Shown: positions 15,663 to 36,981, numbered from the stretch's first letter. The stretch: 37,728 bases of DNA from an uncultured Polyangiaceae bacterium (GCA_964531755.1 CAZHGG010000001.1:4446-42173), one strand, 5' to 3'. Notes: a model not told the origin generated them from the letters alone. Made by a program: numbers and translations.

Positions 15663-15665
15663 TGT

Positions 15666-17036
15666 TTAAAACTCCACGGAGGTTTCGGGATAGCCCTTCT
15701 CGTCGTCGGGCTCGGGATCGTACGGGATGGCCTTCTTCCCCTCCGAGGCGCGCTGCTCTTCGATGGTATCGGGTCGCGGGGGCAGCGGAGGCAGCGGGGG
15801 CAGCCGCATGTCCGGGTTCTCTACCACCCAATCGAAGTCGTTCACGAGTCGCCTCATGAACTGCCTCGGGACCACTCCAACCTCGCCGCCCAGTCCCTTC
15901 GACACGTGGTCCACGAGCTGCTCGATCCGCTCGGGTGTGACGTTCTTCGCGACGATGTTCGGATCACCCCCTGGGTAGAGCTCGCGGAGGCGAAGCCCGA
16001 CGTCCTTCAGACGCGCTCGGTCGAACGGGCGCAGCTCGAGCTGCGGCTGCCGCATCGTCACGAGCCCTCCCTCGTTGAGAAAGCGGATACGATCGTGGAG
16101 CGGCTGGAGGCCCGCCACTCCGCGCCGCGTGTCGAAGAACTCCGGCGTCCCGGTGAAGACCCAGAGCAGACCCTCGAAGCTGTCCGCGTTGTCGATGATC
16201 TGACGAATGCCGTTCAGCGACTTGCCACGAACGTCGCCGCGCATCCGAAGGATGGTTTCGGCCTCGTCGACCACGACCACGAGCCCTTCGTAGCCGGCAG
16301 CCTTCACCACGGCGAGGATGCCGCGGAGGTAGTGCATCGCGTCGGTGCTCGTGATCTCGCCACGGATACCCGCGCTCCGCTTCTCGGCCGCGCTCACGTT
16401 TTCGCTCCCCGAGAGCCACGAGAGCAACGCGCCCGCTTCGCGCACCTTCCCGGCTTGCTTCAACGAGAAGATCTCACGAAGCACGCGGCCGAGGTCTTCG
16501 GGCGCCTTCCCGCCGGTGAGAGAGCGAATGTCCTCTTCGATTCGCTTCTGCACCTTCTGGTCGAAGTCCGGAGCGCTCTCGTCCGCGCCGCCTGCGACGA
16601 GCGCGTTCTCCACCTTCGCGATCCATCGGTCGATGATGTCGCCGAGCGCGCCGCGAGGGCATGAGCTGGTCCCGAGCTCCTGGACCACGCGGCGGTAGAG
16701 GTCCTCGAACTTGTGCAGGTGAAAGTCGTTGTCGGAGACCACCACGAAGCTCGTGGCGAACCCCAAGCCCGGCGTGCTCGTGGGCGCGGGCGTGGGCGTT
16801 CGTCGATAGTGCTGCGCGTCGAGCACCGCCAGCCTGGCCATGAAGGTCTTCCCGCAGCCGTATCCGCCACGCAAGAACTTGAAGACCCCTTCGCCGGACG
16901 CCGCCAACGTGAGGAGTCTCGTGATCTCGGCGTGCTGCCTCTCGACTCCGACAGCAAACGCCTCGAGCCCGCGCTCCGGGACGACTCCGGAGCGAAGGCG
17001 CTCGAAGATGTGCTCGCGATCTCGTTGGCTTATCAT
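15666..17036 (-). CDS. brxD: BREX ATP-binding protein BrxD (DUF2791 P-loop ATPase).
   Basis: The internal ATG at 17036 overlaps the pglZ TGA (ATGA). The N-terminus reads MISQRDREHIFERLRSGVVPERGLEAFAVGVE...FKFLRGGYGCGKTF (Walker A), with VVVVDEAE as Walker B. The 135 codons upstream in the ORF track are Arg-rich and overlap pglZ. Confidence 0.85.
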   Translation of the reverse strand: MISQRDREHIFERLRSGVVPERGLEAFAVGVERQHAEITRLLTLAASGEGVFKFLRGGYGCGKTFMARLAVLDAQHYRRTPTPAPTSTPGLGFATSFVVVSDNDFHLHKFEDLYRRVVQELGTSSCPRGALGDIIDRWIAKVENALVAGGADESAPDFDQKVQKRIEEDIRSLTGGKAPEDLGRVLREIFSLKQAGKVREAGALLSWLSGSENVSAAEKRSAGIRGEITSTDAMHYLRGILAVVKAAGYEGLVVVVDEAETILRMRGDVRGKSLNGIRQIIDNADSFEGLLWVFTGTPEFFDTRRGVAGLQPLHDRIRFLNEGGLVTMRQPQLELRPFDRARLKDVGLRLRELYPGGDPNIVAKNVTPERIEQLVDHVSKGLGGEVGVVPRQFMRRLVNDFDWVVENPDMRLPPLPPLPPRPDTIEEQRASEGKKAIPYDPEPDDEKGYPETSVEF

Positions 17037-19891: not shown

Positions 19892-19984
19892 GAGGGGATC
19901 CTACTCTTGCCTTCAGGCATCTTCGAGCTCACGGAGAGGGGAATCGAGCACCGAGCCACCCGCGTGGCGTGACGGCTTCCGAGA

Positions 19985-22900: not shown

Positions 22901-24094
22901 CGCCACGAGCAGATCGAACGCAATCACCAAGAAGTGCCCGCTCCCACACGCGGGGTCGAGCAGCTTGATGTCGCGCACCGACCGAGGCGCCCGCGCCACC
23001 GCGTCGTCGGGGATGGCCTGGGGTACGTAATATTTCCAGTGCTCCTCGAGCTCGCCCTCGAGCGGCATCAGCGCGTCGAGCGGCATCTCCCCCGCCTCGC
23101 GCTTCGCTCGCCACTCGGCACGACGCGCGTCGAGCAGGGGCAACACACGCTCGGCGTCCGCGGTCCACCCGTGCTTCTTGCACATGGCCAGCCACGTGAG
23201 GCCGAGGCTGTTCTGGAGGAGCCACTCCACCATGTACCGCTCGGTGAACATCTGCGTCTTCGAGGCGATTTCGTGCGGCTCGATCTTGCCGCCCCCGGCG
23301 ATCTTGTCGTCCAGCGCCTCGCGGTCCGGATCGTTCCAATACTGGTAGACCCAGCCGAGGGTCGTCTCGTCCTGCCAGGCGCTCTCGAGCCCGGGGTCGT
23401 CCAGGCGCTCGACCACCTCGCGCAGCGTGGCCGCGGGAATGCCGAAGAGCCGCGTGAGCCCCACGTCGCCGAAGAGGCCCGGCAGGTCCACTGCCAGCTC
23501 GTCGAACACGAGCTGGAGCAGCACCGCGTAACCCTCGGTCTCGTCGTTCGTTCCCCCGCCGCAGAGGGCCGGCGCGAACTCGCGAAGCTCGCGGTAGCCT
23601 TTGCTGTTCCAGCCGCCGGTGAGCACAGCGGGCTTGGAGAGCCCGAGGGCCTCGAGCTGGCGCAGGAGCACGAGCCGGTTCAGCAGGGTCGCCGCCGCTT
23701 CTTTCTCGGCCTGCGCGAGGAGACGCTCCTTGATGGCCAAGAGCTCGCTCGGGCGAACGGGGGCGCCGGCCTTGGCGGGCTTGGCCGACTTGCCGGCCTT
23801 GGCGGGCTTGACGGAGGCCGAGGAGGCCGAGGGGGTGGGAGCACCGAAGCCGGCCCGCGCCCGCGCGTCCAGAGTGGCCTCGATGCGCAGGCGTCGCTCT
23901 CGGTGCGCCTCGTCGAGGCCTGCCTTCTCGAGGGGAACCGAGAGCCGGTAGCGCCGATCGGCCTCGTCGTGAATGGCACGCAGAAGCCGCGCGCGGAGTC
24001 CCTTGTTCGCGCTGTCGTGCGACGAGGTGCCGCGGATAGTCTCGGCGAGGAGCTTCTTGGCTTCTGGGGTGAGGCGAGGGAGGTCGTTCACCAT
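19985..24094 (-). CDS. pglX: BREX adenine-specific DNA methyltransferase PglX.
   Basis: Motif I is LLDPACGSGHFLV and motif IV is VVGNPPYQG. Size is about 1369 aa. The ATG at 24094 (MVNDLPRLTPEAKK) overlaps the stop of the upstream small ORF by 1 nt (TGATG). The 77 further upstream codons in the track are Arg/Gly-rich and I reject them. Confidence 0.92.
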   Translation of the reverse strand: MVNDLPRLTPEAKKLLAETIRGTSSHDSANKGLRARLLRAIHDEADRRYRLSVPLEKAGLDEAHRERRLRIEATLDARARAGFGAPTPSASSASVKPAKAGKSAKPAKAGAPVRPSELLAIKERLLAQAEKEAAATLLNRLVLLRQLEALGLSKPAVLTGGWNSKGYRELREFAPALCGGGTNDETEGYAVLLQLVFDELAVDLPGLFGDVGLTRLFGIPAATLREVVERLDDPGLESAWQDETTLGWVYQYWNDPDREALDDKIAGGGKIEPHEIASKTQMFTERYMVEWLLQNSLGLTWLAMCKKHGWTADAERVLPLLDARRAEWRAKREAGEMPLDALMPLEGELEEHWKYYVPQAIPDDAVARAPRSVRDIKLLDPACGSGHFLVIAFDLLVAMYREEARHLGADLTDKAIAESILENNLHGLDIDPRAIQIAAAGLFLKAKSLAKGCRPKRVNLVAPVLQLGNLPADDPAVSALRRDLKREVGIPEELTQKLLTSLAGVDYLGSLLKVDAAVEGAIRDVEVELLRAHGQGDLFGGFATEAVKMTAEEAKATVLDKLEVFLAGHSRSEDLGLRLDGEQLAAGVRFVRLAKEGAYDVVVGNPPYQGLTKASGAFGYVATHYPRGKADLYAAFLERGLEFVREGGISALVTMRGWMFLGQFAELRKRLLETYDLRSIGDFDRGAFDEVPNEVLAVSVPVFRRAPHPGVPSVATQPTPLDDRSYDRARTGRKRAAVLAQVGRFEFDPRGFGVIEGEPVVYWWSREFLAEYRELPSFGSKYSGRAGMATQDNPRYVRMAWEVPVFAPKTAQRDGWVAFITGAKGREWIEPLTVVLRWHATGLEMKVRHEHAYRSISKYIPSESKYFEPGIAFCTTGATFSARSHRYPSVFSNVGSTVFAGAASHYVVCVLNSLRARRLLSDFNPSVHFELSDVARLPLFPLSKTETIFSTLDTSFSEHESHREPSVEFLSPGPSAWTYAQAWAQLAVDRPEGAPLPPYEPVYETARPEDHVSFAVGLALGRFPLEGPPSGVPLLFVSPEGPDSLDLPACAPLLEAWKGHGAHVGQGDSLRTYLRKSFFDFHKKLYENRPIYFPLSSSKRSFVALVSIHRWADDTLNVLLADHLMPAKRRLEGELDDLRTARAASNATGAAKSKAEKRFTEVQKLTEELGDFIAKVTELAEKGAPPSDDKTQPRERDARFAMDLDDGVMVNSAALWPLLEPQWKDPKKWWKELANAPAGGGAKKDYDWSHLAARYFPTRVRAKCHEDPSLAVAHGCFWELHPAKAYAWELRLKDEIRPDFTIDEPGSDEARARFLAEHAEEAQEALAKEMKRREKKNAKADAENEGDDAGAGPLFDGEASDDEGEGADA

Positions 24095-24357
24095 CAGCGA
24101 CGCTCGCTCGCGAGTGCGCCGCCCACGGCCTCGGTGCCGGGAACGGGGGGAATGAGCGAAGCCTGGAGCTTCGCGAGCTGCGCGGAACGCTCCACGGTGA
24201 AATACATCTCTCGACACGACGTACACGTCGGAACCGCGAAGGAGTCCGGGATCGGGAGAAACATCCCACGGCGGTATTCGGCCGCTCGGCCTGGCCCGGA
24301 GGTAAGACCCACCTCGGCTCCACACTCGGCGCAGCGAAACGGCTGAAAGTCACTCAT
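24094..24357 (-). CDS. Small (87 aa) four-Cys zinc-ribbon protein between brxC and pglX. It is not a canonical BREX gene.
   Basis: MSDFQPFRCAECGAEVG...AVPTCTSCREMYF gives a CxxC...CxxC arrangement. The stop overlaps the pglX ATG. An alternative GTG start at 24462 would overlap the brxC stop (GTGA), but it adds an Arg-rich, low-complexity 35 aa. Confidence 0.55.
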   Translation of the reverse strand: MSDFQPFRCAECGAEVGLTSGPGRAAEYRRGMFLPIPDSFAVPTCTSCREMYFTVERSAQLAKLQASLIPPVPGTEAVGGALASERR

Positions 24358-24458
24358 GTTGATGTGTTCCACAGTGTTCGTCGGTCGGCGAGGTCCGCGG
24401 GTGCCGAGCAAGAGAGCACGACGGTCGCGGTGATGCCGCCTTGAAGGGTCCAGCTCAC

Positions 24459-27400
24459 TCACGTCAGCCTCACGCGCCCGCCCCGGTCCAGTGTCGGGCC
24501 GATCCGCTCTTCCAGCTCCACCAGCACCGCCTTCAATTCGGCCCGGCTCGCGATCTCCCGGCCTCGCAGGCGGGTCTCGACCTTCACCACCGGCACCACC
24601 GGGCTCGGCGAGGCGCCCGCTGGCTTGGCCTTCCGGGCGAGCTCGTCGTCCAGGCGGTCGTTCGCCAGGTCCTCCGCCTGGTGAAGGCGGCTCGCGAAGC
24701 GGTCCCGCAGCTCGACCAGCGTGGGAGAGATGGCCTCGGCCGAAGTGTCCACCAGGCTCTCGGCGATCGGGCGGAGCACCCGATGGACCGCGTCCGCGTC
24801 GAGCTCGGCGAACCCCGCGCGTGTCTTCACGCGCGCTGTCACAGCGTCGGCGTCGAGGTTCTGCCGGTTGAGGAGCGCCCCTCGGACCTCGACGTAGCGC
24901 GCGCGGATCCGCGCAGACGCCGGCCCGAGCGGCGCGACGTCACGCCAGGGCCGCTCGGTCTCGAGGTGAGCGCACACGAGCTCGGCGTCGGTCTCGAGCC
25001 CCGCGAGCTCCTCCATCGCCCGGAGCTGCGAGAGCGCGTGGTCGCGGGTCTGCGCGGCCTCGTTCACCGTGTCGATCGCCTCCGGGGTGAGCTCGGCGCT
25101 GCACACCCCGAGCTGCTCGAAGCCATCCCGCAGGACGTCGAGGTTTCGCTTCACGGCGACCACGGTCTTCTGGACGAGCCGTGAGCGGTAGCTGTCTTCG
25201 AGGGCCCGATCGAGCTTCTGGAGCGCCTTCGGAAGCGCGGGGCGCCCTGGGAGCTGGTTCATGCGTCGCTCGAGATCGCGGAGGCGCTCGCGAGTGGGCA
25301 CGAAGTGAAGGAACACGGTGTCCGCGATGGCCTCGTCGTCCGGCTCGAGGTCGACCTGAAGCATGCTCTGGAAGAGTCGACGAATGGCGATCCTGTCCCG
25401 CCCGGTGACCTCGCCCTCCATGGCCGGGAACAGCTCCGCGCGACGGAAATCGCGATCTTTGGTGAAGAGATCGCGCACGCCCGGGTCTTGATGGGAGGTG
25501 ATGTCGTCGCCTTGCTCGGGACGAATGCGCACCTTCTTTCCGCGGAGGAGCCCCGCGCAGCACGCCTTCACGAGATCGGGCGCGTAGCCATAAGGCGGGC
25601 TCACGAACATGGCCACGAGAGCCTGCCCGGAGAGGCCGCCGTTCTTCTCGATCTCCTGGGCAATTCGCGTCGGGAAGAGGCCCGTGCAGGACGCGACGTA
25701 TTTGCCTGCGTCGAGCGCGAGGAGCCCAAGCCCCCCGTCCATGAACTTCGTGGATGGCCCCGTCAGCTCCCTCTCGAGGAGCTGCCCGAGCTCGGCGGGC
25801 GAGACCGCGATCTCGGAGAAGTGCGGGTAGAGATCGGGCAAGATGCGCGTGACCATGGTGCCGAGCGCGGTGCTGAACGCGCTCCCCGCGTCGCGCGGGC
25901 GGAGCTGCTGACCGCGAAAATACGCCGTGCCCTCCAGGAAGGACTCCGCCACAGCCGCACGCACGCGCGCCGAGAGCTCGTCGAAGCGAGCCTCTTCCTC
26001 GATCAAGAGGCGCTGCTTCTCTCGTGAGAGCGACGCACGGCGCGACGTGTACCGCTCGATGAGCTTCTCCGAGCGCGCGAGCTGCCTGGCGTGGTCCTCG
26101 ATCGCGCCCGACTCGCCGACCACCCACACGAGGCGATTGCGGTAGAGTTCCTGATCGCTCTTCGGGACCCACGCCGCGGCGGTGCGGTCCTCTTTCCTGG
26201 CGAGAAAGCGAAAGTCGACCGCGGCCGTCGAGTCCTCGCGGGCGTCCTGGAGCTTCACGTCGTGGGCCTGGCGCCCGTCGGAGAACCAGAGCGTCCACGG
26301 GAACGTACGGCCCTTCCACCGTGGCCGCTCCTGGCTCGAGCCCACGAGGTTCTTCAGGGCATCTTGGGTAATCTTGCTGATCTGCTCCTGGGTGACGCCG
26401 ACATCGTCGCGCTCTCGTTGCCACTCCTGCCCCGCCGAGCTCTGGATCTTGTACCCGTGCTTCTCGGAGTACGAGAGAAGGCTCTGCGAGCGGAGCTTCT
26501 CGAGCGCCTCGGTCACCGCTTGCACGCGGTTGCCTTCGCCGAGTCGTGAGTAGAGGCACGCCGCCACGAGCGCGGGCATCGTGGGCACTTGCTCCTGAAT
26601 GAGCTCGAGCAGGGCCACGGCTTTTCCCACGCGGATGGCGAACGCGTCGTCGCGAACCTTCGGATCGGCGAAGATGCGCGAGAGGGTGGTCTGAACGTCG
26701 GCGTCCAGCGCCGAGTGCTGGACCTCGAAGATCGCGTCGATCGTGACGAGCGCGCCCACCTCCCCGTTCGCCAGCTTCTGCTCTCGAAAGAGCTCGCCAA
26801 GGAGCTGAAGGAGGCCGCGGATCGCGTGGTCGTCGCCCTGCATGCGGTTCGATCGCGTGCGGAGGTTCGACGTGACTTGCATGAGGAGATCGATGTGCCC
26901 CGGGAGCATCGGATAGACCTCGACGAAGTCCTCCTCGGTGATGTCCTCGCACTGGTACCCGTAGAGCTTCAGATCGCCGCGGTGCTTCTGGAAAAGATCG
27001 CGGAGAGTGCCCTCGAGCTCGGGTTTCTTCTTGAGGAGACGCTTGTGGACGACGTCGCGGATGTTGGTCGTCCCGAGGTGAACGCGAAGGTGCGTGGGGA
27101 AGCGGTCCTTCAGCTTGCCTAGATTGTTGTTCTCGGCCTGGTCCTCGAGCTTCTGCTGACCGGTCGCGAAGAGCCACACCCGCCCCTTGAGGCGCTGCCC
27201 GAGCTCGGAGACGAACGACTGGAGCTTGAGCATCCGGCCCTCGTCTTGGTGAACGTATTGGCTCACCTCGTCGACGACGATGAAGAGGCTCCGGTTCTCC
27301 TCCCGGGTGTGAATCATGGCGTCGATGGCCTCGACCACCTCACGCACGCCGGTGCCTGCCCCGGTGCGCGAACCGGCGCGGCTGTCGATCCAGCTCATGG

Positions 27401-28109
27401 GATCGGGGTAGCGGTCGGGCTTCATCACGTGGAGCACGTGGGAGAAGTGGTCGTCCGCCTGCTCCTCTTCCTTGGCGACCGCCCAGTCCTTGCCGAGGGT
27501 CTTCTTGGCCGTGTGGACGAACGCCTCCCACTCGCCGTCGCGCTCGAGCTTCAGCTCGTAGTCGGCGACGAGGTTGCTCTTGGAGCAATACCCCAGGCGA
27601 CTCTGCACGAGGCGCAGCACGGCCGAGTGGATGTGCTCGTTGTCGCGGGCCACGCCGCCGATGTCGAACACGACCGCGATGGGATTCACGCGCTTCGCGA
27701 GCGCGTCCCAGGCGAGGACGAGCTCCTGGCGTCGCGGGGAGTCGTCACGCGTGAGCAGCGCCGACCAGAGAGGCGTCCCGTCGGGCAGCACCACACCGTC
27801 GAGCGAGAGCCCGAGCAGCTTGGCGAAGCTCGACTTTCCAGAGCCGAAGAAGCCCGAGATCCACGACGCCGGCAGCTCGGGGCCGCTCTTCTTGGTCAGC
27901 TCCTGCGAGATGCCTTCGAGCAGGTGAACGAACTGCTCGTGAATACCCGACTTCACGCGCCGGCCGCGCGGATCACCCTCGGGGTACCCGCCCGTGATGA
28001 TGTATTCGCTGACCTCCGCCTGGAGCTTGGCTGGGCTCTGCTCGTGGAAGTAGACGACCGGCGGGATGTCCCGGGTCACGTCGGCGACGAACAGGTCTCG
28101 AATCTTCAT
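24459..28109 (-). CDS. brxC: BREX P-loop ATPase BrxC/PglY (DUF499 family).
   Basis: A 1216-aa protein. It starts MKIRDLFVADVTRDIPPVVYFHEQSP, with Walker A at SGFFGSGKSSFAKLLGL and Walker B at LFIVVDEVSQY. It sits directly after brxB with a 28-nt gap. Confidence 0.9.
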   Translation of the reverse strand: MKIRDLFVADVTRDIPPVVYFHEQSPAKLQAEVSEYIITGGYPEGDPRGRRVKSGIHEQFVHLLEGISQELTKKSGPELPASWISGFFGSGKSSFAKLLGLSLDGVVLPDGTPLWSALLTRDDSPRRQELVLAWDALAKRVNPIAVVFDIGGVARDNEHIHSAVLRLVQSRLGYCSKSNLVADYELKLERDGEWEAFVHTAKKTLGKDWAVAKEEEQADDHFSHVLHVMKPDRYPDPMSWIDSRAGSRTGAGTGVREVVEAIDAMIHTREENRSLFIVVDEVSQYVHQDEGRMLKLQSFVSELGQRLKGRVWLFATGQQKLEDQAENNNLGKLKDRFPTHLRVHLGTTNIRDVVHKRLLKKKPELEGTLRDLFQKHRGDLKLYGYQCEDITEEDFVEVYPMLPGHIDLLMQVTSNLRTRSNRMQGDDHAIRGLLQLLGELFREQKLANGEVGALVTIDAIFEVQHSALDADVQTTLSRIFADPKVRDDAFAIRVGKAVALLELIQEQVPTMPALVAACLYSRLGEGNRVQAVTEALEKLRSQSLLSYSEKHGYKIQSSAGQEWQRERDDVGVTQEQISKITQDALKNLVGSSQERPRWKGRTFPWTLWFSDGRQAHDVKLQDAREDSTAAVDFRFLARKEDRTAAAWVPKSDQELYRNRLVWVVGESGAIEDHARQLARSEKLIERYTSRRASLSREKQRLLIEEEARFDELSARVRAAVAESFLEGTAYFRGQQLRPRDAGSAFSTALGTMVTRILPDLYPHFSEIAVSPAELGQLLERELTGPSTKFMDGGLGLLALDAGKYVASCTGLFPTRIAQEIEKNGGLSGQALVAMFVSPPYGYAPDLVKACCAGLLRGKKVRIRPEQGDDITSHQDPGVRDLFTKDRDFRRAELFPAMEGEVTGRDRIAIRRLFQSMLQVDLEPDDEAIADTVFLHFVPTRERLRDLERRMNQLPGRPALPKALQKLDRALEDSYRSRLVQKTVVAVKRNLDVLRDGFEQLGVCSAELTPEAIDTVNEAAQTRDHALSQLRAMEELAGLETDAELVCAHLETERPWRDVAPLGPASARIRARYVEVRGALLNRQNLDADAVTARVKTRAGFAELDADAVHRVLRPIAESLVDTSAEAISPTLVELRDRFASRLHQAEDLANDRLDDELARKAKPAGASPSPVVPVVKVETRLRGREIASRAELKAVLVELEERIGPTLDRGGRVRLT

Positions 28110-28137
28110 GGTCTGCAGTTCCCTACGACGAGCGCGC

Positions 28138-28803
28138 TCATGGATAGATGCGGGGGCGGTAGTCGCGATCGGCGGGCAGCTCGCACATGAACGAGAGCGC
28201 GCTCGTGGTCACGTCCGTTCGCTCTCCGGGGTAGAGGAGCACGACCGGGATGTTCCGCGTCTTGCCGTCGATGTGCTTGAGGAGCGCGGACGAGCGAAAG
28301 AAGGGGTAGAGCGCGCCGGCCCGCCCGAGGAGGACGAGCGTGCGGTCGGCCCTGTCGGGGTATTTCGCCGAGAAGTCCGCGACGAGCTTGGCGACGTCGC
28401 CGGCTATTCCGTCGGGCCCTTCGATGTGGGGAGCGATCTTGTCGCGCAGGTGGGCGAGGGCGCGCTCGGGGTCTTTCTCGTAGAGGCGCCGCTCGCGGCT
28501 CGTGAGGGCGTCGATGTTCGCCTGGCCCGTGGCTCGAATTCGGTCCAACAGGAGCTTCTGGAGGGAGATGGGGAGCACGCCCCAGCCTTCGGCGCGGAGC
28601 TTGTCGGTCAGGCGGCGTATGAGCTGACGGAGCTTGAACTCGTCTTTCGGGCGATACGGCAAGATCGCAAAGCGGTAGTTCCGCATCGTGCTGATCTGCG
28701 GCCCCTCGGGGGCGAGCAGATCGCGCTCGAGCGCGGCGACCGCTGCTTCGAGGGACTCGTGGAGGGCGCCAGGCTGGCCACGCGATGAAGAGCTCTCGGT
28801 CAT
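28138..28803 (-). CDS. brxB: BREX protein BrxB (DUF1788).
   Basis: The internal ATG at 28803 overlaps the brxA stop (ATGA). The 221-aa product carries ISTMRNYRFAILPYRPKDEFKLRQLIRRL and LVLLGRAGALYPFFRSSALLKHIDGKTRNIPVVLLYPGE, the DUF1788 pattern as I recall it. Confidence 0.82.
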   Translation of the reverse strand: MTESSSSRGQPGALHESLEAAVAALERDLLAPEGPQISTMRNYRFAILPYRPKDEFKLRQLIRRLTDKLRAEGWGVLPISLQKLLLDRIRATGQANIDALTSRERRLYEKDPERALAHLRDKIAPHIEGPDGIAGDVAKLVADFSAKYPDRADRTLVLLGRAGALYPFFRSSALLKHIDGKTRNIPVVLLYPGERTDVTTSALSFMCELPADRDYRPRIYP

Positions 28804-29612
28804 AGGGTGGCCTTCGCCCAGTCGGTGAGGCCTGCGGCCTCCCAGTCGAGCTCGGTGAGGTGGGCCATGCGGCGGAAGGTGATGCCTTCGAGCGAGCGGA
28901 GCCTCTGGTCGAGAAAGCCCTCGGTCAGCCCCACCGACGCAAGATAGGGATTTTCGGTGAGCGTGCCCGAGAACCGGAGGCCTCGCAGCAGGTGAAGCAA
29001 GTAGCCGAGCGCGAGATCGGGCACCTTGGGGACGAGGAGGAGCCGTGCCCCACGCCCCGCGGAGAGGAGCCCCGCCTCGGACGCGGCGGACATCAGCTTG
29101 CTTGCGAACTGCACACAGGTGGCCTCCGACCAGCGGCCGGGAAATTCGTTCTTCACCCACCGAAGCACGGTGTCGCGGTCGAGCGGACGCGAAGCGAGAT
29201 CGACGAGGCGCCGCTCGAGGAGCAGCTCCCCGGTGAATCGGCGATAGAGCGGGTCCGAGAGCTGCAAGTGCCAGTGGCAGATGGCCTGCCTCGTGGGCAT
29301 GTCCATCCCACGCCACCGGCGAAGGACCTCGAGCGCTTCGGGGAACGGATCGTAGCGTACGGCGAAGCTCTGGAGCAGAAACCGGACACGCTCGAGGCTC
29401 TTGCTGCCGAACCACCGCTCCTCGAACGCCACGAGGGCGCGGTCCGCCGAGGGGATCGAGGGATCGACGTGCTCCCAGTACCTCCGAGATTCCTCGATCC
29501 CGAGGGCGAGCCGCAGGATGCGCGTGTGGACGGCGGTAGCCTCGGACGGACGCTCGGCGTGTCCGGCGCCTTCGCGGTCCTTGTTCAATGCAGCGGCCCC
29601 CACCCTCTTCAA
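28800..29612 (-). CDS. brxA: BREX protein BrxA-like (DUF1819-like).
   Basis: The call rests mainly on position, immediately upstream of brxB with a 4-nt overlap, and on an all-helical composition. At 270 aa it is longer than a typical BrxA. The start is ambiguous: TTG at 29612 or GTG at 29603. Confidence 0.65.
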   Translation of the reverse strand: MKRVGAAALNKDREGAGHAERPSEATAVHTRILRLALGIEESRRYWEHVDPSIPSADRALVAFEERWFGSKSLERVRFLLQSFAVRYDPFPEALEVLRRWRGMDMPTRQAICHWHLQLSDPLYRRFTGELLLERRLVDLASRPLDRDTVLRWVKNEFPGRWSEATCVQFASKLMSAASEAGLLSAGRGARLLLVPKVPDLALGYLLHLLRGLRFSGTLTENPYLASVGLTEGFLDQRLRSLEGITFRRMAHLTELDWEAAGLTDWAKATL

Positions 29613-29616
29613 GCGA

Positions 29617-30207
29617 TCACTCCTCCAGCTTGAAGTAGGGCAAGGGGTAGTGTTCAGCGAGTGGCACCAGCGCGGCGGCCAAATTCTTCACCTGGACGTC
29701 GAGGGCTTCGGGGCGCGCGCCGAGACCGCGAGTGAGCTGCCGCCCGTTGGGCACCGTGGTGAAGGCCGGGGAGTTTGCCTGCCCCGCGAGGGCCGCGACG
29801 AGCTTCTTGCGCACAGCAGGCGAGAAATCGGCGTCAAGACGGACCGGAAGCGAGAGGGCCTTCTCCGGTGGACGGCCCGAGCGCTTGTGGGCCGCGAGGC
29901 GATCGGCGAGCTGCTCGTCTGCTTCGAAGCCCAGAAAGTACAAAGAGCGCATCTTGTCGGGATCGGCCATCCTGCCGCGCGCCTTCGCGTCGGTACGCCG
30001 AGCGGCCTCACGGACTGCCTCGAGTGAAGCCCACGCGTGCGTCTGGGGCAGGAGCCGCGCCAAGAAATCTCCGCCTCCCGCCTCGTCGATGAGGTCGGTA
30101 TCCCACCAGCCGAGGCGGCGCGGCGTGCACCGGCCCTCACCAGCCCACGCGACCGTGAGCTGGAGCGCGAGGATCGCGTCGAGGGTCTCGTCGGAAATGG
30201 GCGTCAT
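29617..30207 (-). CDS. brxE: First gene of the BREX operon; putative BrxE (BREX type-6-specific protein).
   Basis: A 196-aa ORF with ATG at 30207, ending 4 nt before brxA. The assignment is positional, since type 6 is defined by an extra gene upstream of brxA. I cannot verify a BrxE sequence signature from memory. Confidence 0.5.
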   Translation of the reverse strand: MTPISDETLDAILALQLTVAWAGEGRCTPRRLGWWDTDLIDEAGGGDFLARLLPQTHAWASLEAVREAARRTDAKARGRMADPDKMRSLYFLGFEADEQLADRLAAHKRSGRPPEKALSLPVRLDADFSPAVRKKLVAALAGQANSPAFTTVPNGRQLTRGLGARPEALDVQVKNLAAALVPLAEHYPLPYFKLEE

Positions 30208-30236
30208 CGGGCGAGGAGCCTACGCCCTCCTTGGCG

Positions 30237-30836
30237 ATGGGAACAAGGCTCGAGTCGGTTCGCACCGGATCCCCGCAGCCGGTGTGTGCGCTGTGGTACC
30301 TTCGCCCCGTGGGGACGCGCGACGAGTGGAACGAGCTGGTCGGGAGCTTGGGCGAGACCGATCGCACGCGAAGCCCACGCTTCCCGGAATTTTACGTGCT
30401 CGCCGTTCGCGATGGGGCGAAGTTCCTGGCGTCGTTTCGGGCGAGCCTGGGCGACGAGCGGATCCACGATCTCATCCACGACGTCCTCGCCGACGCCGAC
30501 ACCATCCTCCGGGCCGATACGCCCCGCGCCCTCTTCTATACGGCGCTCAAGCGGCGCGCCATCTCCTGGAAGCGCCGCGGGGACGCGCCGGTCGTCGAGA
30601 CTCCGCCCGTCGAGGTCGCGACCGAGCACGCACACGCCGTGGAGGCGCGGCGCGCGTTCGTGCTCGACGCTCAGGCTGCGTTCGACGCCCTCCCCGATCG
30701 CGAGCGCCTGATCGTGGCGGCGGCCGCGCTCGGCGAAGACCGCGAGACCATCGCTCGCGACCTCCGGACCACGCGCGCGAACGTGGATCAGATCGTGAGC
30801 CGCGCGCGAAAGCGCTTCCGGGAGGGTGGCCCGTGA
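30237..30836 (+). CDS. ECF-like sigma-70 family RNA polymerase sigma factor.
   Basis: Region 2-like: FPEFYVLAVRDGAKFLASFRASLGDERIHDLIHDVL. Region 4.2-like: LPDRERLIVAAAALGEDRETIARDLRTTRANVDQIVSRARKRFRE. The start is uncertain among TTG 30231, ATG 30237, and GTG 30282 or 30309. It is divergent from brxE. Confidence 0.75.
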   Translation: MGTRLESVRTGSPQPVCALWYLRPVGTRDEWNELVGSLGETDRTRSPRFPEFYVLAVRDGAKFLASFRASLGDERIHDLIHDVLADADTILRADTPRALFYTALKRRAISWKRRGDAPVVETPPVEVATEHAHAVEARRAFVLDAQAAFDALPDRERLIVAAAALGEDRETIARDLRTTRANVDQIVSRARKRFREGGP

Positions 30837-31603
30837 AGCTCCCCAGCCGAGACATGCGACTTGCCGGCGGGCTCGTCTGCCCCGCGCGCGCGATCGACCG
30901 CGCGGCGTGGCTCGAGCATGTGGTCAAGCACCCCCTCGGCGTGAACGCCATCGCGCGCAACTCGGGCCGCGATCCGTGGAACCTCGAAGGGTGGGACCGC
31001 CTGAGCCCCCCCGTCGTCACCCAGGCCCAGCGCGACGAAGTGCTCCGTGGCATCGCGAGTCTGCGTGAGGAGAAGCTTCGGTGCGAGGTCCCCGAGCTTC
31101 GGGGCAAAAAGTCCGGCTCGGAACCCGATCGCCTCGCGTGTCGAAAGTGCGTCGTGCCGATCGTCTCGCGCTGCGAGAAGCTCCTCGACGCCGACGATGG
31201 TGTGGGAAGCCGGTATGCTTCGGTGACCGAAGAGCTGCTCGGCGCGCTCGAGGAGGGGCAGGGCGTGGTGATCGCCCCGGCGAGCTTCCACGAAGCGATC
31301 CAACGGCTCTGGCGAGCCCCCGAGCGCCTCGCGGGCTTGGTCGTCCTCACGATTGGGCTCGACCGCGCGTGCGCCGCCGTGCCCATCGCGAGGATCAGTC
31401 GAGCGGACGGGGTGCGCGCCGAGCTCTACTTCGAGGAGCCGAACCGACTCCGTTGGCGGACGGCGTACCGCAACGCGGCCCTGACGAGGACCGGTCCTCA
31501 GATCGTGAGCTTCGTCGGGGAGGTGGCGCGACCGTCTCCCGGACTCGCGTTGTCAGATCTCTGCGTGGTGCCGCGTCGTTGGTGGGAGGCACATGGCATC
31601 TGA
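30833..31603 (+). CDS. Hypothetical cytoplasmic protein; an anti-sigma or adaptor role is possible but unsupported.
   Basis: The GTG at 30833 overlaps the sigma-gene TGA (GTGA). GC3 is high. No transmembrane segment is evident. A Cys cluster, RCEVPEL...ACRKCVVPIVSRC, is present. This is the 3' part of the 623-aa track ORF, whose upstream part I reject. Confidence 0.55.
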   Translation: MKLPSRDMRLAGGLVCPARAIDRAAWLEHVVKHPLGVNAIARNSGRDPWNLEGWDRLSPPVVTQAQRDEVLRGIASLREEKLRCEVPELRGKKSGSEPDRLACRKCVVPIVSRCEKLLDADDGVGSRYASVTEELLGALEEGQGVVIAPASFHEAIQRLWRAPERLAGLVVLTIGLDRACAAVPIARISRADGVRAELYFEEPNRLRWRTAYRNAALTRTGPQIVSFVGEVARPSPGLALSDLCVVPRRWWEAHGI

Positions 31604-32726
31604 TCTTTACGGCATCGCCGTACGTGACACGAACGCGGCCCTTCGCGGGGTCGAGCGCGACCTCTCCCGGGCCGTCGAAAACGCGGAATGGCTGCAAATT
31701 CCGCTCGCCCGCGTCGGCGATGCCTTGCGCCTCGGGCTCGAGCTCTCGCGCCCTTTGCGCGCGTGGCTCGGAGGCCTCGCGCCGGAGGAGCTCAAGGGCG
31801 CGCTCGCGAGCATGACCGAAGAAGCCGCCTCGTGGAGCCTGCCCACGCGGCCCGTTGGCGAGGACGAAGATCCGATCTTGACCACCGTCCTCCGGCGCCG
31901 CGACGAGGCCGAGAGCCTTCGCGCGGCCGTGCGTCGGGCCGCCCAACCGAAGGGGCATGTCGCCCAGAGCTGGTCCGAATACGTCGCCCTCTCTGCGGCG
32001 CTGTCGACGGCGGACGACGGGATTCGTCGCGTGGTTACGCGCGCCCGGGTCACGGAGCTTCTCGGCGCGCGCGCCGCGATGCGGCCGACCTGGGCCGACG
32101 CGTTCGACGAAGAGCCCGACGAGGAGCCTTCCACCGACGAGGGCGACCTGCCCCTCGGCGTGGCCGCCACCGTTCGCCTCGCCGACGAGGACATCGCGCG
32201 CTACGTGACGCGAGGAGCGCTCTCGCGCCTGGTCGAAGGCATGGCAGCGGCCAATGGGCAGTTCGCCGAGGAGCTCGCCGAGTGCATCGACGGCCTCCTC
32301 GAGGCGCGCGAGGAGGTCGCCTGGGTCGCTCGAAGGTGGCGAAAGGCTGCGCCGATTCGCTGCGAGAGGGACCCTCTCGTCCTCCGCTCCGTGCCCGCCG
32401 TGCGGTTGGCCGCGGCCTCGGCCCCGGTGGTCTCGTCCGAGGCGACGCTCGTTCATCTCTGGACGCTCTCCCCACTCGACGCGGAAGCATGTGTCGAGCT
32501 GACGCCGCGCGAGGTGGTGCTCGTCGTGTTTCCCGGGGAAGACCCCCTCCTCCGCTTGGAGCTCGCGGATCGCGTTTGTACGGCGGCGGACGAAGACGGC
32601 GTGTGGCGAGTGAGGCTCGCCCTGCCGTCCGGACCGGTGACGGTTCGCGTGGTCGGCGCCGACGGCCGCGTGTTCGCGTCGGAGCTTGGCTTCGCAAACG
32701 CCGATCCGTCCGATGAAGCGGAGTGA
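31593..32726 (+). CDS. Hypothetical protein (377 aa) with an acidic central linker and a beta-rich C-terminus.
   Basis: ATG at 31593 overlaps the upstream gene by 11 nt. The frame has consistently high GC3. I recognise no motif. Confidence 0.6.
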   Translation: MASDLYGIAVRDTNAALRGVERDLSRAVENAEWLQIPLARVGDALRLGLELSRPLRAWLGGLAPEELKGALASMTEEAASWSLPTRPVGEDEDPILTTVLRRRDEAESLRAAVRRAAQPKGHVAQSWSEYVALSAALSTADDGIRRVVTRARVTELLGARAAMRPTWADAFDEEPDEEPSTDEGDLPLGVAATVRLADEDIARYVTRGALSRLVEGMAAANGQFAEELAECIDGLLEAREEVAWVARRWRKAAPIRCERDPLVLRSVPAVRLAAASAPVVSSEATLVHLWTLSPLDAEACVELTPREVVLVVFPGEDPLLRLELADRVCTAADEDGVWRVRLALPSGPVTVRVVGADGRVFASELGFANADPSDEAE

Positions 32727-34461
32727 CTTCGAGGCTCGACTCCGCGAGCTGAAGCGCCTCCCGCGGGGCTCCGCGAGAGCGAAGATGTTCGTGAGCGATC
32801 TCGAGCGAGCCGCGCCCGACATGGCCCACGCGCTCCGCGAGGAGCTGAGGCGCGTGGCTGCGGAGCATGGCCTCGGCGGGGGCGCGATCTTCGCGAAGCC
32901 GCTGGGTGTCGGCGAGAGTTGGCTCTTGCTGTTCGAGCCCCCCAAGCAGGGCCATGTCTTTCGCCTTCGGGCCTCCTTCGAGCCCGGCGGGAAAGAGGGA
33001 CGCCTCGAGGCCGAGATCCGTCGCGCCTATCGGGGCCTCGTCGCCAGCGCGGCGAAGGTCGGCCGGCACCTCGACCACCGGGTGCCCCCCGTCGTCACGA
33101 TGGACGCCCCGACGCTGGCTCACTTCGAGATCGAGGGGAGCTCGCTGGGGCTCAGCGTGGCCATCGCGGCGCTGTCGGCGGCCACGTTGCGCGCCCCGGA
33201 CTCGCGGGTAGCCGCTTCGGCTCAGGTACGGGATGACGGCAGGTTGGCGCCCGTCGAGCACCTCGCGCCGAAGCTCGAGGCGCTTCGTCAGGCCCACCCC
33301 GAAGTCGAGCGAGTGCTCGTGGCCGCGGGGCAAGACACGCGCGACTACCACGGGCCGCTCGAGATCGTGCCCGCGCACCATCTGGTCGACGCGATGTCTC
33401 CGTGTGGGCTCACGTTCGACTCGCTCCCCGAGGCACGACTCGACAGCTTCCGTGAACGAATCGAGCGTTTCGCCAGCGAGAATGGCCACCCGCACGGTGT
33501 CGATGACTGGAAGCGCCTCTCGCTCGAGGCGTGGGAGACCGCGAAGGTGCTCGAGCCCCACGAGCCCGCGCGGGCGGGCGCGGCGCTGGCTTTCGCTGCC
33601 CGCTTCGCCGTCCACGCGGGCGAGCCAGAGGGGGCTACGACGCTCCTCCGCGAGGCCCCGACTCTGGACGTCGACGCCTATCCCGAGCTCCACGCCTGCC
33701 GCCTCATCGCGCGCGCCACGAGCGCGATCGACCTGGACGATCCCGCCCACGCGTGGGCGCTGGCCGCCGAGGCCGTCGCCGCATGCGAAGCGCTCGGAGG
33801 CAGCGACCGCCGCGAGCTGCTCGGTCAGGCCTATGGCACGTTGGGGCGAGCGATCCTCCACGCCGGATCTCCCGCGGAAGCGGAAGGCCCTCTGCGTAAG
33901 GGCATGGACCACCATGCGAGGGTGTGCCCGGCGGAGGCCCCCCGCTCGGGCTGCTACCTCGCCACCTGCCTGCGCAGGATGGGACGGCTCGAGGATGCAG
34001 CGCAAATCGTGGATGCGGCGCTCGAAGCCTTGAAGCCCGAACGCTGGGATCTCCACGTGACGACGAAGAACTACCTGCATCTGGAACGCGCGCGGATCTT
34101 CTCGGAGTCCAACGACTCAGCGGCCGCCATTGGCGCCTTCGAGCTCGTCTGCCGGGCACAGAGTCGAGACTCGAGCTATCCGCGCCTCGGCGCGCTTCGA
34201 GGTTTAGCGAGCGCGTATCGCCTGGCGGGCGAGCTTGCGCGGGCCGACGAAGCGCTCCGCGCCTGTCTGGCCGTCGGGCGCGCCGCCGGGACCCCTCGCA
34301 CCATCGCGCGAGTGGCTGCGATTCCTGCGGGCGAGCTGCTCGTCTCGGACGCGCGCACGTCGGTCGACCGCGCCGATCTCGAGCAGGTGTGGCGGGTAGC
34401 GTTCGGCCCGGACTTGTCGCCCGACGGAATCCGCGAACGACTGAGGACCTGGATCTACTGA
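32713..34461 (+). CDS. Lon-like (peptidase S16) serine protease domain fused to C-terminal TPR-like repeats.
   Basis: ATG at 32713 overlaps the upstream gene by 14 nt. FEIEGSSLGLSVAIAALSAATLRAPDSRVAASAQVRDDGRLAPVEHLAPKLEALRQAHPEVERVLVAAGQ aligns by eye to E. coli Lon DGPSAGIAMCTALVSCLTG...[37 protein letters not shown]. The Ser (S144, 33142-33144) and Lys (K187, 33271-33273) fall at the dyad positions. The C-terminal half (about 33500-34440) is Ala/Leu-rich and TPR-like. Confidence 0.72.
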   Translation: MKRSDFEARLRELKRLPRGSARAKMFVSDLERAAPDMAHALREELRRVAAEHGLGGGAIFAKPLGVGESWLLLFEPPKQGHVFRLRASFEPGGKEGRLEAEIRRAYRGLVASAAKVGRHLDHRVPPVVTMDAPTLAHFEIEGSSLGLSVAIAALSAATLRAPDSRVAASAQVRDDGRLAPVEHLAPKLEALRQAHPEVERVLVAAGQDTRDYHGPLEIVPAHHLVDAMSPCGLTFDSLPEARLDSFRERIERFASENGHPHGVDDWKRLSLEAWETAKVLEPHEPARAGAALAFAARFAVHAGEPEGATTLLREAPTLDVDAYPELHACRLIARATSAIDLDDPAHAWALAAEAVAACEALGGSDRRELLGQAYGTLGRAILHAGSPAEAEGPLRKGMDHHARVCPAEAPRSGCYLATCLRRMGRLEDAAQIVDAALEALKPERWDLHVTTKNYLHLERARIFSESNDSAAAIGAFELVCRAQSRDSSYPRLGALRGLASAYRLAGELARADEALRACLAVGRAAGTPRTIARVAAIPAGELLVSDARTSVDRADLEQVWRVAFGPDLSPDGIRERLRTWIY

Positions 34462-34518
34462 TCCGGCTGGAATCGGAGCCAGGACGTCAGAAACCCTCGG
34501 CTCGCACGTCGTGTGGGA

Positions 34519-36981
34519 ATGCTCACCCTCCCCCGCGCTCCCCGCGCCCTGGTCCCCGCGTCTCCTCCCCACCACCCGCGCTCTGCGGCGAGCTCGGCGA
34601 TGGCCATGGCTCCCACCGCGCCTGCCTGGCAGCCTCACCTGTCGCTCAAGCTCCGCAACGCGACGACGGGCGTCAACCCGCGCGATCACCAGCTCGCCGC
34701 GTGGGACCGAATGACTGCCCACTACCTCCAAGAGGGCAAGCAGGCTGGAATCGTCGTCGTGCCCACCGGCGGCGGGAAGACGGTCCTCGCCGCCCACTGG
34801 CTGCTCGAGCACCACATTCGCAACGGCGGCCGCGTGCTCTGGCTCGCGCATCGCCGCAGCTTGCTCCGCCAGGCCATGAGCACGTTCCACAACCTTGGAA
34901 ACGTGGCCTATCCGAAGCCGGCGCTGCACTTGGCGACGGTCTCCTCGACCGACGCGAAGTGGACCACCATCAGCACCGACCACGACGTGGTGTTCTCGTC
35001 GATGCAGACTGGCGTGCTCGACACGAACCTGGGCTTCGTCGAGGCGTTCGTGAAGGAGGCCCCGAGCGGTACGTTCGTGGTCGTCGACGAGGCCCACCAC
35101 GCCCCCGCGCCGAGCTACGCCCGCCTTCTGCGCTCGTTGAAGTCCTGGGACTGCAAGCTCCTCGGTCTGACGGCGACGCCCGTGCGCGCGAACGACGAGG
35201 ACGCGAAGCGACTCGCGGCCCTCTTCGACATCGAGAGGCCGCACAATCGGCCGCTCTACCAGGTCACACGTCGCCAGCTCACCGATCAGGGCATCCTCGC
35301 CCACCCGGCCTTCACGACGGTGAAGACCGAAGTGAACCTCGAGAAGGACTTCACCCCCGAGGACTACCGGCACCTCGAGCGCTACGGCGAGATGGGCCCG
35401 AACGTGCTCCACCGGCTCGCGAAGAACGCGCACCGCAACAAGCTCATCGTGGACGAGTACAAGAAGGGAAAGGCCAAATACGGCCCCACCATCATGTTCG
35501 CCGCCGACACGCTCCACGCGCAGACGCTCGCCCACGAGCTGCAGAAGGCGGGCATCGACGCGGACTATGTCGACTACAGCCGCAAGGACGCGCAGGTGGT
35601 CATGGAGAGCTACCGAACCCGCAAGAAGCCCGACGTCCTCGTGAACGTCGAGATGCTCACCGAGGGCTTCGACGCGCCGCACACGCGCACCGTGTTCATC
35701 GCGCGTCCCACGCGCTCGCCTGGCCTCGTGTCGCAGATGGTCGGCAGGGCGCTGCGCGGAAAGAGGTCCGGCGGAAACGAGATTGCTCACCTCGTGACGT
35801 TCCGTGACACGTGGGAGCAGTTCGACGTGCTCGACACCGAGTACGTGCTCCGCGAGGCCGAGGACTCCGAGAAGCTTCCCGAAGTCACCACGCCCAGCCA
35901 GCTCGTGGTCATTCCTCCGGAGCTCGTGACGGAGGCGTACCGCATCCTCCAGAGCAACGTCCGCGGACACCTCGTCGGCGTGTTCCAGTGCCTCCCGCAC
36001 AGCTGGTACGCCTGGATCGAGGTCCTCGAAGACGACCTCCAACCCCGGCACGTCATGGTGTTCGACAACCAGATCGCAGGGTTCGAGGCCCTCCTCGCCG
36101 CCTTCCCCACGAGCGAGGGGATCCCGGAGGAGATCACCGAGGACTTCGCGAGGGCGCTGGTGCAGCGCTTCTTCGTGGACGTCCCCGATCCGCTTCCCCG
36201 CTGGGCCGACGTGGCGGCCCTCCTCCACGCGAGGCGGAGCGACTTCGGCATCACGCACTACACGTTCGAGGAGAAGAGCGCCTTCGACCCGAACGCGCTC
36301 GCTCGGCAGATCCTGGAGCGGAAGCTAGCGAGACTCGAGGAGCACGCGTTCCTCCAGGGCGTTTGGGACGCGAACCAGGCCTGCCGAAGCGTGTACCGCG
36401 ACGATCTTCGGTCTTTCCTCGAGGACGTGTCGGCCGAGATGCTCGAGCTCACCGCGCCGCCCCCCGCGAAGCTGGCGCCGGAGATCGAGAGAATCGTCCC
36501 GCAGTCTGCGCCGCGCGCGTGGGGCAAGGGAGAACAAGGCTATTCGCTGGTCGGCCTCCGTCGCAGCGTGCTCAGCATCAAGAAGCACTTTCCGGGCGGG
36601 CCGCCTCCCGTGTCCGAGATGCGTTGGTCGGAGCGGCCCACCACGCGACTCTGGGGCTTCTGTCGCTACTCGGACAGGAGCATCACGCTCAACTGCGTCC
36701 TCGACTCGCCGGATATCCCGTACTTCGTTTTGGAGTACCTCATGTTCCACGAGATGCTCCACGCCGACATGCCAAGCGCTGGCCACAACCGCGACTACCG
36801 CGAGCGAGAGCGTGGGTACACACCCTCGGCGGAGGCCCTGGAGGACGCGGAAAGACGCGGGATCCGGCCGGGGGCGAACGCGGGGCCGCTGTTCTGGTAC
36901 GTCACGGCGGACCGGTTTCTCGGGACGTTCGACCGGTATTACCTGCACAAGGCGCCGGGGACGACGATGGAAGTGGGGTGA
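34519..36981 (+). CDS. SF2 helicase (type III restriction res-subunit-like, paralogous to 9053..11701) fused to a C-terminal DUF45/YgjP-like HExxH zinc metallopeptidase domain.
   Basis: Helicase motifs: VVVPTGGGKT, VVVDEAHHAP, GLTATP, QMVGRALRG. The C-terminus RLWGFCRYSDRSITLNCVLDSPDIPYFVLEYLMFHEMLHADMPSAGHNRDY matches the DUF45 pattern (rWGsC...i.lN..L...p...leYVvvHELcH....H), with HEMLH at 36748-36762. The start is ambiguous: ATG 34519, or ATG 34600/34606, which would remove a Pro/Ala-rich leader. Confidence 0.85.
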   Translation: MLTLPRAPRALVPASPPHHPRSAASSAMAMAPTAPAWQPHLSLKLRNATTGVNPRDHQLAAWDRMTAHYLQEGKQAGIVVVPTGGGKTVLAAHWLLEHHIRNGGRVLWLAHRRSLLRQAMSTFHNLGNVAYPKPALHLATVSSTDAKWTTISTDHDVVFSSMQTGVLDTNLGFVEAFVKEAPSGTFVVVDEAHHAPAPSYARLLRSLKSWDCKLLGLTATPVRANDEDAKRLAALFDIERPHNRPLYQVTRRQLTDQGILAHPAFTTVKTEVNLEKDFTPEDYRHLERYGEMGPNVLHRLAKNAHRNKLIVDEYKKGKAKYGPTIMFAADTLHAQTLAHELQKAGIDADYVDYSRKDAQVVMESYRTRKKPDVLVNVEMLTEGFDAPHTRTVFIARPTRSPGLVSQMVGRALRGKRSGGNEIAHLVTFRDTWEQFDVLDTEYVLREAEDSEKLPEVTTPSQLVVIPPELVTEAYRILQSNVRGHLVGVFQCLPHSWYAWIEVLEDDLQPRHVMVFDNQIAGFEALLAAFPTSEGIPEEITEDFARALVQRFFVDVPDPLPRWADVAALLHARRSDFGITHYTFEEKSAFDPNALARQILERKLARLEEHAFLQGVWDANQACRSVYRDDLRSFLEDVSAEMLELTAPPPAKLAPEIERIVPQSAPRAWGKGEQGYSLVGLRRSVLSIKKHFPGGPPPVSEMRWSERPTTRLWGFCRYSDRSITLNCVLDSPDIPYFVLEYLMFHEMLHADMPSAGHNRDYRERERGYTPSAEALEDAERRGIRPGANAGPLFWYVTADRFLGTFDRYYLHKAPGTTMEVG

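Follow-up and report, generated by a model that had tools for sequence, protein, structure and literature searches.

A Lon-TPR protein lacking an ATPase as candidate protease of a proposed cytoplasmic sigma-factor switch beside a BREX type 6 operon

What does a Lon-like protease domain without an ATPase do beside a phage-defence operon? The question is raised by a stretch of 37,728 nucleotides from an uncultured Polyangiaceae bacterium (GCA_964531755.1 CAZHGG010000001.1:4446-42173; the window), in which a bacteriophage exclusion (BREX) operon of type 6 lies near a gene for a Lon-like domain joined to tetratricopeptide repeats (TPR), here called Lon-TPR. BrxL, the Lon-like component of BREX types 1 and 4, is absent from the type 2 and type 6 gene sets, and an earlier note on this DNA had proposed that Lon-TPR might be an analogue of BrxL or its replacement, or alternatively a sensor-protease. 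The analysis favours the second idea, in a more specific form: Lon-TPR would be the protease of an ATP-independent, cytoplasmic, protease-gated sigma-factor switch, a CRISPR-independent (CRISPR, clustered regularly interspaced short palindromic repeats) analogue of CalpL-CalpT-CalpS. Its gene is coupled to those of a sigma factor and a partner protein, p377, and often to that of a further protein, geneX. We give this reading a probability of roughly 0.55.

In terms of the protease itself, the ATG start of Lon-TPR fits the N-terminal sequence MKRxEFE seen in all homologues, and the AlphaFold model (mean predicted local distance difference test score, pLDDT, 89) places three helices (residues 3–51) ahead of the Lon domain. 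A family profile built from 20 sequences retrieves the proteolytic domain of E. coli Lon (1rr9, E = 6e-8), and the family profiles match dozens of other Lon structures as well, including 2x36 at E = 1e-8. The best Foldseek matches of the model are Lon P-domains (template modelling score against the target 0.65–0.74 over ~180 residues, probability 1.0), and the Lon structures among the matches listed are of the classical type only. On these two lines of evidence the domain, which the earlier note had placed at residues ~130–210, is confirmed and extends over residues ~61–235. The two motifs that the note had aligned by eye, EGSSLG and LAPKLEA, lie at residues 141–146 and 184–190, and in the profile alignment to E. 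coli Lon, S144 coincides with the position of the catalytic serine and K187 with the lysine of LKEKL.

Conservation of this dyad was followed in an exhaustive hidden Markov model search with the N-terminal and Lon part of the protein as query. It brought up 1314 representatives with E <= 1e-3, and the 88 among them that reach E <= 1e-30 are nearly all 555–640 residues long; Lon-TPR sequences form at least 88 clusters (50% identity) at that threshold. An alignment of 71 of the 88 (22–41% identity to the query) contains only 7 invariant columns, and S144 and K187 are two of them; both residues are also invariant in 20 close homologues. Searches with the window protein alone returned NCBIfam LonB (E = 2.6e-4, residues 136–224), aligned through model positions 435–523 only, which are the protease end; Pfam ChlI (PF13541), at E = 0.07 and 13.4 bits, below the 27-bit cut-off; and, as the sole PADLOC match, CRISPR-Lon (E = 0.057). 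Lon_C (PF05362), the Pfam family that the earlier note had pointed to, has no match to Lon-TPR in a Pfam scan at E <= 1 and a precomputed match in 3/23 listed homologues (P0020, P0021, P0024), the list comprising ~23 proteins of ~580 residues with the entire architecture; the TPR models pointed to in the same place do match, weakly (TPR_MalT, E = 6e-6; TPR_12, E = 1e-4).

The C-terminal ~300 residues, previously described as TPR-like, form a helical solenoid in the model, and here the family profile retrieves kinesin-light-chain-type TPR structures (E = 2e-14). G375, R379, R421 and R461 are invariant in this region, and a C-terminal tyrosine is nearly so. Neither a Walker A motif, whose absence had been claimed before, nor a GK[ST] motif occurs anywhere in the 582-residue sequence. 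As judged by sequence profile and predicted structure, Lon-TPR has the fold and the Ser-Lys dyad of an S16 proteolytic domain, which it shares with canonical Lon proteases (LonA, LonB, LonC; MEROPS S16), whereas the AAA+ unfoldase and the LonA N-domain are missing. The missing AAA+ module sets it apart from the canonical Lon proteases, and the lack of both unfoldase and N-domain makes site-specific cleavage likelier than processive ATP-dependent degradation.

Lon-TPR is encoded last in a plus-strand cassette of the order sigma, geneX, p377, Lon-TPR, the junctions of which overlap (GTGA between sigma and geneX, 11 nucleotides between geneX and p377, 14 nucleotides between p377 and Lon-TPR); from the sequence, the genes are translationally coupled and belong to one operon. 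A frame plot of G+C content at third codon positions (GC3) reads the plus strand as coding from 30231 onwards, and on that plot the minus-strand open reading frames (ORFs) at 30204-30635 and 30547-31386 were rejected as genes upstream of brxE. The product of the first gene is, by its profile matches, probably a divergent sigma factor of the extracytoplasmic function (ECF) type. It matches Pfam Sigma70_r4_2 at E = 7e-5 and 22.8 bits, below the 25.7-bit gathering cut-off, and has no match to Pfam sigma region 2; the family profile, however, spans both sigma2 and sigma4 of the ECF sigma factors 5uxx and CnrH (4cxf) at E ~2e-3 and includes a DLxxD motif, as is typical of region 2 in ECF factors.

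The two middle genes lack recognisable relatives in the collections searched. For geneX, sequence searches of Pfam and the Protein Data Bank (PDB) gave no match, weak PDB matches to cytochrome c552 being judged spurious, as the CxxC stretch comes without a haem histidine. Residues H22, H26, C77, C96, C99 and C107 are kept in 14–15 of 15 geneX orthologues, a pattern that suggests a metal site, and geneX is possibly a zinc-binding co-regulator or anti-sigma factor. For p377, no significant PDB match was found by sequence, and a fold search with Foldseek gave no match at E <= 0.001, only generic β-sandwich matches. The AlphaFold model of p377 (pLDDT 81) has a helical N-terminal region (residues 5–170) and a disordered acidic stretch (residues 176–193), followed by further helices (residues 198–252), a disordered loop (residues 271–281) and a C-terminal β-sandwich (residues 285–369). 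It is the loop that bears on a possible proteolytic event: its pLDDT falls below 50, and among 24 orthologues it varies in sequence and length except for a core [R/L]-x-A-A-[A/S/T], in which A273 is kept in 23/24 and A274 in 24/24. From this conservation, the modelled disorder and the likeness to CalpT described below, the Ala-Ala motif is probably the cleavage site. No convincing transmembrane segment is present in any of the four cassette proteins, which are predicted to be cytoplasmic.

The association of these genes was examined at 27 further loci with a full-length Lon-TPR relative, taken from representative genomes of the same order, one public metagenome-assembled genome and metagenome contigs, with flanks inspected up to 18 kb on each side of Lon-TPR; the flanks of ~10 of the loci were annotated by tblastn against the window proteins and restriction-modification (R-M) proteins only. 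An orthologue of p377 lies directly upstream of Lon-TPR at 27/27 evaluable loci, one of them frameshifted and one a fragment only, the junction being mostly a 4-nucleotide overlap. The sigma gene is present in the cassette at 22/22 loci with sufficient upstream sequence, and 15 of those 22 have a geneX orthologue at the same position, so that the four-gene form, including geneX, is the commoner one in this order. Individual loci depart from the pattern in several ways. Two show signs of cassette decay or rearrangement: in one genome (G632; L061 1910-3213) p377 is split across two frames, and in a second (G478; L066 5713-8549 / 17425-19570) a distance of 11 kb separates Lon-TPR from the sigma gene and a complete p377, only a C-terminal fragment of p377 having been left upstream of Lon-TPR. 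One metagenome-assembled genome (G528; L056 and L057 (= L001)) has the cassette twice, on separate contigs, and geneX is present in one of the copies and absent from the other; both forms therefore coexist in a single genome.

Table 1. Positions of the cassette, its domains and the neighbouring genes in the window
Feature	Position	Strand	Remarks
BREX type 6 operon	11752-30207	-	Divergent from cassette; PADLOC and NCBIfam
ECF-like sigma factor	30231-30836	+	201 aa from TTG 30231, alternative ATG 30237; first cassette gene
geneX, Cys/His-rich, optional	30833-31603	+	~249-256 aa; start GTG 30833 or ATG 30854
p377 partner	31593-32726	+	377 aa; candidate substrate or anti-sigma factor
p377 disordered loop, R-L-A-A-A-S motif	32403-32435	+	aa 271-281; predicted cleavage site
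Lon-TPR protease	32713-34461	+	582 aa; last gene of plus-strand cassette
Lon (S16) proteolytic domain	32893-33417	+	aa ~61-235; profile and Foldseek matches
Ser144 codon	33142-33144	+	Putative catalytic Ser of Lon-TPR
Lys187 codon	33271-33273	+	Putative catalytic Lys of Lon-TPR
TPR-like helical solenoid of Lon-TPR	33499-34458	+	aa 263-582 (model: all-helical repeat aa 263-579)
ResIII/SF2 helicase with YgjP-like metallopeptidase tail	34513-36981	+	822 aa; Pfam, PADLOC

The architecture of Lon-TPR and its cassette is reminiscent of CalpL, in which an N-terminal domain and a Lon domain (dyad S152/K193 or S154/K195) precede a C-terminal SAVED sensor, and which upon binding the cyclic oligoadenylate cA4 oligomerises and cuts the anti-sigma factor CalpT at LAAA in a poorly structured region (bioRxiv 10.1101/2024.05.08.593097). 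Lon-TPR resembles CalpL in being a Lon-fold protease without an ATPase, whose dyad S144/K187 stands at nearly the same position as that of CalpL; in its layout of N-terminal helical domain, Lon domain and C-terminal sensor; and in being encoded alongside an ECF-like sigma factor, at every evaluable locus, and a partner protein. The partner, too, has its parallel, as p377 carries an Ala-rich motif in an unstructured segment. The sensor, however, is a TPR solenoid and not SAVED, for which neither Pfam nor PADLOC gave a match, and a cyclic oligoadenylate is therefore not the expected input; p377 is not MazF/DUF2080-like, in contrast to CalpT; and most Lon-TPR loci have the Cys/His-rich geneX in addition to the components of CalpL-CalpT-CalpS. 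Neither the window ORFs scanned with PADLOC and Pfam nor 49 ORFs in the flanks of other loci include a cas gene; Cas10 was not searched for elsewhere in the genome. Membership of the CalpL family was tried by sequence, and profiles A1 (E <= 1) and A6 (E <= 10) had no CalpL among their PDB matches. With no SAVED domain, no CalpT-type partner, no CRISPR link and no retrieval of CalpL by the profiles, Lon-TPR is on present sequence evidence not a member of the CalpL family; that it works like CalpL we infer by analogy.

Two further systems offer partial parallels. Csx29 (TPR-CHAT) likewise acts on Csx30/CASP-sigma, as summarised in the same source (bioRxiv 10.1101/2024.05.08.593097); the likeness to the cassette lies in a TPR-containing protease that works with a cleavable partner by which an ECF-type sigma factor is held. 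Its protease fold is CHAT (caspase-like) and not Lon, it is activated by Cas7-11 binding target RNA, and in contrast to that system no CRISPR component is present at the Lon-TPR cassette. In Myxococcus xanthus the ECF sigma/anti-sigma pair DdvS/DdvA controls an island that combines CRISPR with CBASS (cyclic oligonucleotide-based anti-phage signalling system), according to two reports (PMC11506125, PMC6061681), which provide a precedent for such a pair turning on a neighbouring defence island. There, DdvA is a transmembrane anti-sigma factor and no Lon-TPR protease takes part, whereas the cassette proteins are predicted to be cytoplasmic.

A protease-gated sigma switch is proposed because the cassette has the same parts list as the CRISPR trios, with a TPR solenoid replacing SAVED. 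In such a switch p377 would hold the sigma factor inactive, helped by geneX where that is present. A trigger, perhaps a protein or ligand linked to infection or else an altered state of the partner complex, would engage the TPR domain and thereby switch on or position the Lon domain, which would then cut p377 in the conserved disordered R-L-A-A-A-S loop. The sigma factor would be freed by this cut, possibly following further degradation, and would transcribe its targets; plausible ones are the cassette itself and adjacent defence genes, namely BREX-6 or the helicase-peptidase gene in the window and type I R-M elsewhere.

The genomic setting of the cassette bears on what the switch might serve. 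The system neighbouring it is BREX type 6, in which PADLOC and NCBIfam identify BrxE, BrxB, BrxC, PglX, PglZ, BrxD and BrxHI; the gene order is BrxE, BrxA/B, BrxC, PglX, PglZ, BrxD, an inserted gene and BrxHI. The ATG of brxE at 30207 stands head-to-head with the sigma start (TTG 30231 or ATG 30237), 23–29 nucleotides apart, so each promoter must be located within the opposite gene. The window also contains a DruE-like helicase and a PD-T4-6-like kinase. In five other genomes (G670, G632, G592, G432, G494) type I R-M genes (HsdM, HsdS, HsdR) adjoin the cassette, and in two of them (G670, G632) the sigma gene stands head-to-head with hsdM across a gap of at most ~100 nucleotides, the same arrangement as that of brxE and sigma here. 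Also near the cassette in other genomes are GmrSD, an HTH-M78 (IrrE-like) protein and an SMC-like ATPase, while further loci are flanked by Ser/Thr kinases, STAND/TPR proteins, CHAT, MavL, the YhcG nuclease and two-component genes. The cassette occurs in 25/401 genomes of the order (17/136 genera) and in 2/4 other genomes searched within the same genus, and no Lon-TPR homologue was found in the phage or plasmid collections searched. It is thus an accessory module of patchy distribution, borne on defence islands and often but not always beside self/non-self methylation systems.

Several observations weigh against the proposed switch or against its connection with infection. No anti-sigma or CalpT-like (MazF/DUF2080) fold is detectable in p377, and that p377 or geneX binds the sigma factor we infer from gene order only. 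CalpL is not detectably a nearer relative of the Lon domain than LonA or LonB are. In the sequences preceding eight sigma genes, no shared promoter motif of the -35/-10 type rose above shuffled controls. Many loci have no recognisable defence genes in their flanks and carry kinases, TPR proteins and two-component genes instead. Finally, the TPR region is as conserved as the Lon domain (mean top-residue frequency 0.455 versus 0.456), and such sequence conservation points to a conserved ligand, for example the cognate partner complex or some conserved molecule, more than to fast-evolving phage proteins.

Of the other explanations, the one that first suggests itself is that Lon-TPR substitutes for BrxL in a BREX type that has none. 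BrxL shares with Lon-TPR a Lon-like domain, C-terminal in its case, and a phage-defence context, and Lon-TPR lies 2.5 kb from brxE. BrxL is, however, a DNA-binding, DNA-stimulated AAA+ ring translocase (PMC11341690) encoded co-operonically with BREX, an activity that Lon-TPR cannot replace because it has no ATPase. Moreover, Lon-TPR sits on the opposite strand in an operon of its own, the PADLOC scan matched no BrxL model to it, and BrxC, PglX, PglZ, BrxB, BrxD and BrxE were found in the flanks of 0/27 other loci, so that neither the suggested replacement nor the BREX linkage on which it drew is upheld; the same cassette adjoins type I R-M in other genomes. We reject this explanation on the grounds of strand and linkage and because an ATPase is lacking, and leave it hardly any probability. 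It is also very unlikely that the Lon fold is catalytically inert and has no role beyond binding or oligomerisation. Domains of Lon-like fold that do not act as proteases are known from RadA and ComM, RadA is among the weak PDB matches of the family profiles, and the protein's own Pfam match is to ChlI and not to Lon_C; yet S144 and K187 remain invariant across the 71 representatives while most of the domain varies, and they stand in a GxSxG ... L-x-x-K-L context as in active Lon.

An active protease could, alternatively, be an effector of abortive infection: the TPR domain would sense a phage protein, the freed Lon domain would degrade essential host or phage proteins, the sigma factor would serve operon expression only, and p377 would be an inhibitor or antitoxin. 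TPR sensors joined to effector domains are common among defence proteins (Avs/STAND), and an intact dyad within a defence island fits this scheme, but it leaves the strict co-conservation of the sigma gene unexplained, the conserved Ala-Ala loop of the cognate p377 suggests that the protease has a substrate of its own, the TPR surface shows conservation and not variability, and both characterised protease-plus-sigma trios cut an anti-sigma partner. We regard it as unlikely. A somewhat different possibility keeps the protease-gated sigma switch and assigns it to general stress or developmental signalling in large-genome bacteria, the adjacency to BREX and R-M reflecting residence in variable islands only. 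Here the many flanks with Ser/Thr kinases, TPR/STAND proteins and histidine kinase or response regulator genes, which are not known defence genes, find a ready place, as do the conserved, non-diversifying TPR domain and the lack of homologues in the phage and plasmid collections. Against this stand the recurrence of the cassette beside type I R-M, GmrSD, the helicase-peptidase and BREX, at times head-to-head, its very patchy distribution even within one genus, and one locus that abuts a tRNA-like 3' end; such a general role is doubtful, though it retains a modest chance. The opposite specialisation, in which an infection-sensing switch controls the adjacent methylation-based defence operon (BREX-6 here, type I R-M elsewhere), with Lon-TPR cutting p377 in the Ala-Ala loop and the freed sigma factor driving the divergent operon or the helicase-peptidase, we put forward tentatively, with a similarly modest chance of being right.

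The tRNA-like element belongs to locus L033 (~2210-2265; near-identical in L032), where a 3' arm, GGTTCGAATCCC, lies ~200 nucleotides upstream of the sigma gene; its sequence suggests that this island was inserted beside a tRNA gene.

Downstream of the cassette, the helicase-peptidase gene starts 51 nucleotides after Lon-TPR, and six other genomes (G305, G670, G632, G592, G639, G473) have homologues of it (31–55% identity) no more than 20 kb away from the cassette. It is probably a separate defence gene that recurs near the cassette. In three of these genomes the homologues, at 54–55% identity to 34513-36981, are directly preceded by a gene for an SMC/AAA_21-like ATPase of ~1065 residues (L080 2022-6691, L081 2009-6657, L061 16174-19892), and the pair of SMC-like ATPase and helicase-peptidase looks like a two-gene system. 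The window copy has no SMC-like partner and directly follows Lon-TPR instead.

A domain of the BREX operon itself recurs in these islands. The C-terminal ~265 residues of BrxHI (residues ~775–1040; window 11770-12567, minus strand) have no Pfam match and are 52.6% identical to the C-terminal extension of a type I HsdR encoded beside the cassette in G670; the identity to the HsdR extensions of G632, G592, G432 and G494 is 37–47%. The same domain is thus borne by BrxHI in the window and by HsdR elsewhere, in islands that always contain the cassette and often the helicase-peptidase.

Lon-TPR also has relatives beyond the cassette. Other ATPase-less Lon-TPR architectures occur in the same phylum, in forms of ~900–1080 and of ~600 residues. 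Four relatives of 900–1080 residues (L017-L020; G262, G059, G380, G372) have an N-terminal extension of 400–530 residues and no sigma or p377 neighbours; they are a different architecture of the same superfamily. The ~600-residue forms have a different TPR-like C-terminal half, to which a 404-residue ORF in the window (3747-4961, plus strand), lying between the DruE-like helicase and the PD-T4-6-like kinase, is ~32% identical (L021 8472-9317, L022 10555-11295). This ORF consists of the TPR-like half alone, without a Lon domain, and the Lon-domain proteins of L021 and L022 are likewise near Ser/Thr kinases. The genome of the window encodes a second ATPase-less protein with N-domain and Lon-like domain (G000:C127:8113-8340; L004 1036-2898), with an open frame of 621 residues, a family profile match at E = 7e-10 and no Pfam match. 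Look-alikes of the homologue P0005 in a protein atlas all fall in clusters annotated 'hypothetical protein', from Myxococcota, Planctomycetota and Lentisphaerota.

Our literature searches found no description of a Lon-TPR/sigma cassette. The points newly brought out here are the commoner four-gene form of the cassette, its head-to-head placement with brxE or hsdM, the prediction of a cleavage site in the Ala-Ala loop and the non-diversifying TPR domain. The analysis would also correct the notion that BREX types devoid of BrxL are complemented by a Lon-like gene nearby. To our knowledge, trios of protease, anti-sigma factor and sigma factor have so far been described only in type III CRISPR systems, as their output arms (CalpL/T/S and Craspase/Csx30/CASP-sigma). 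If the proposed switch is real, a free-standing version with a TPR sensor would show that the logic of these trios is not peculiar to CRISPR but forms a general module of bacteria, and would offer a simple ATP-independent, site-specific protease switch for study or engineering. It would also offer a testable route to the induction of BREX and type I R-M expression and, should the more tentative link to the adjacent methylation-based operons be true, would be the first CRISPR-independent circuit in which a protease gates the induction of BREX or R-M.

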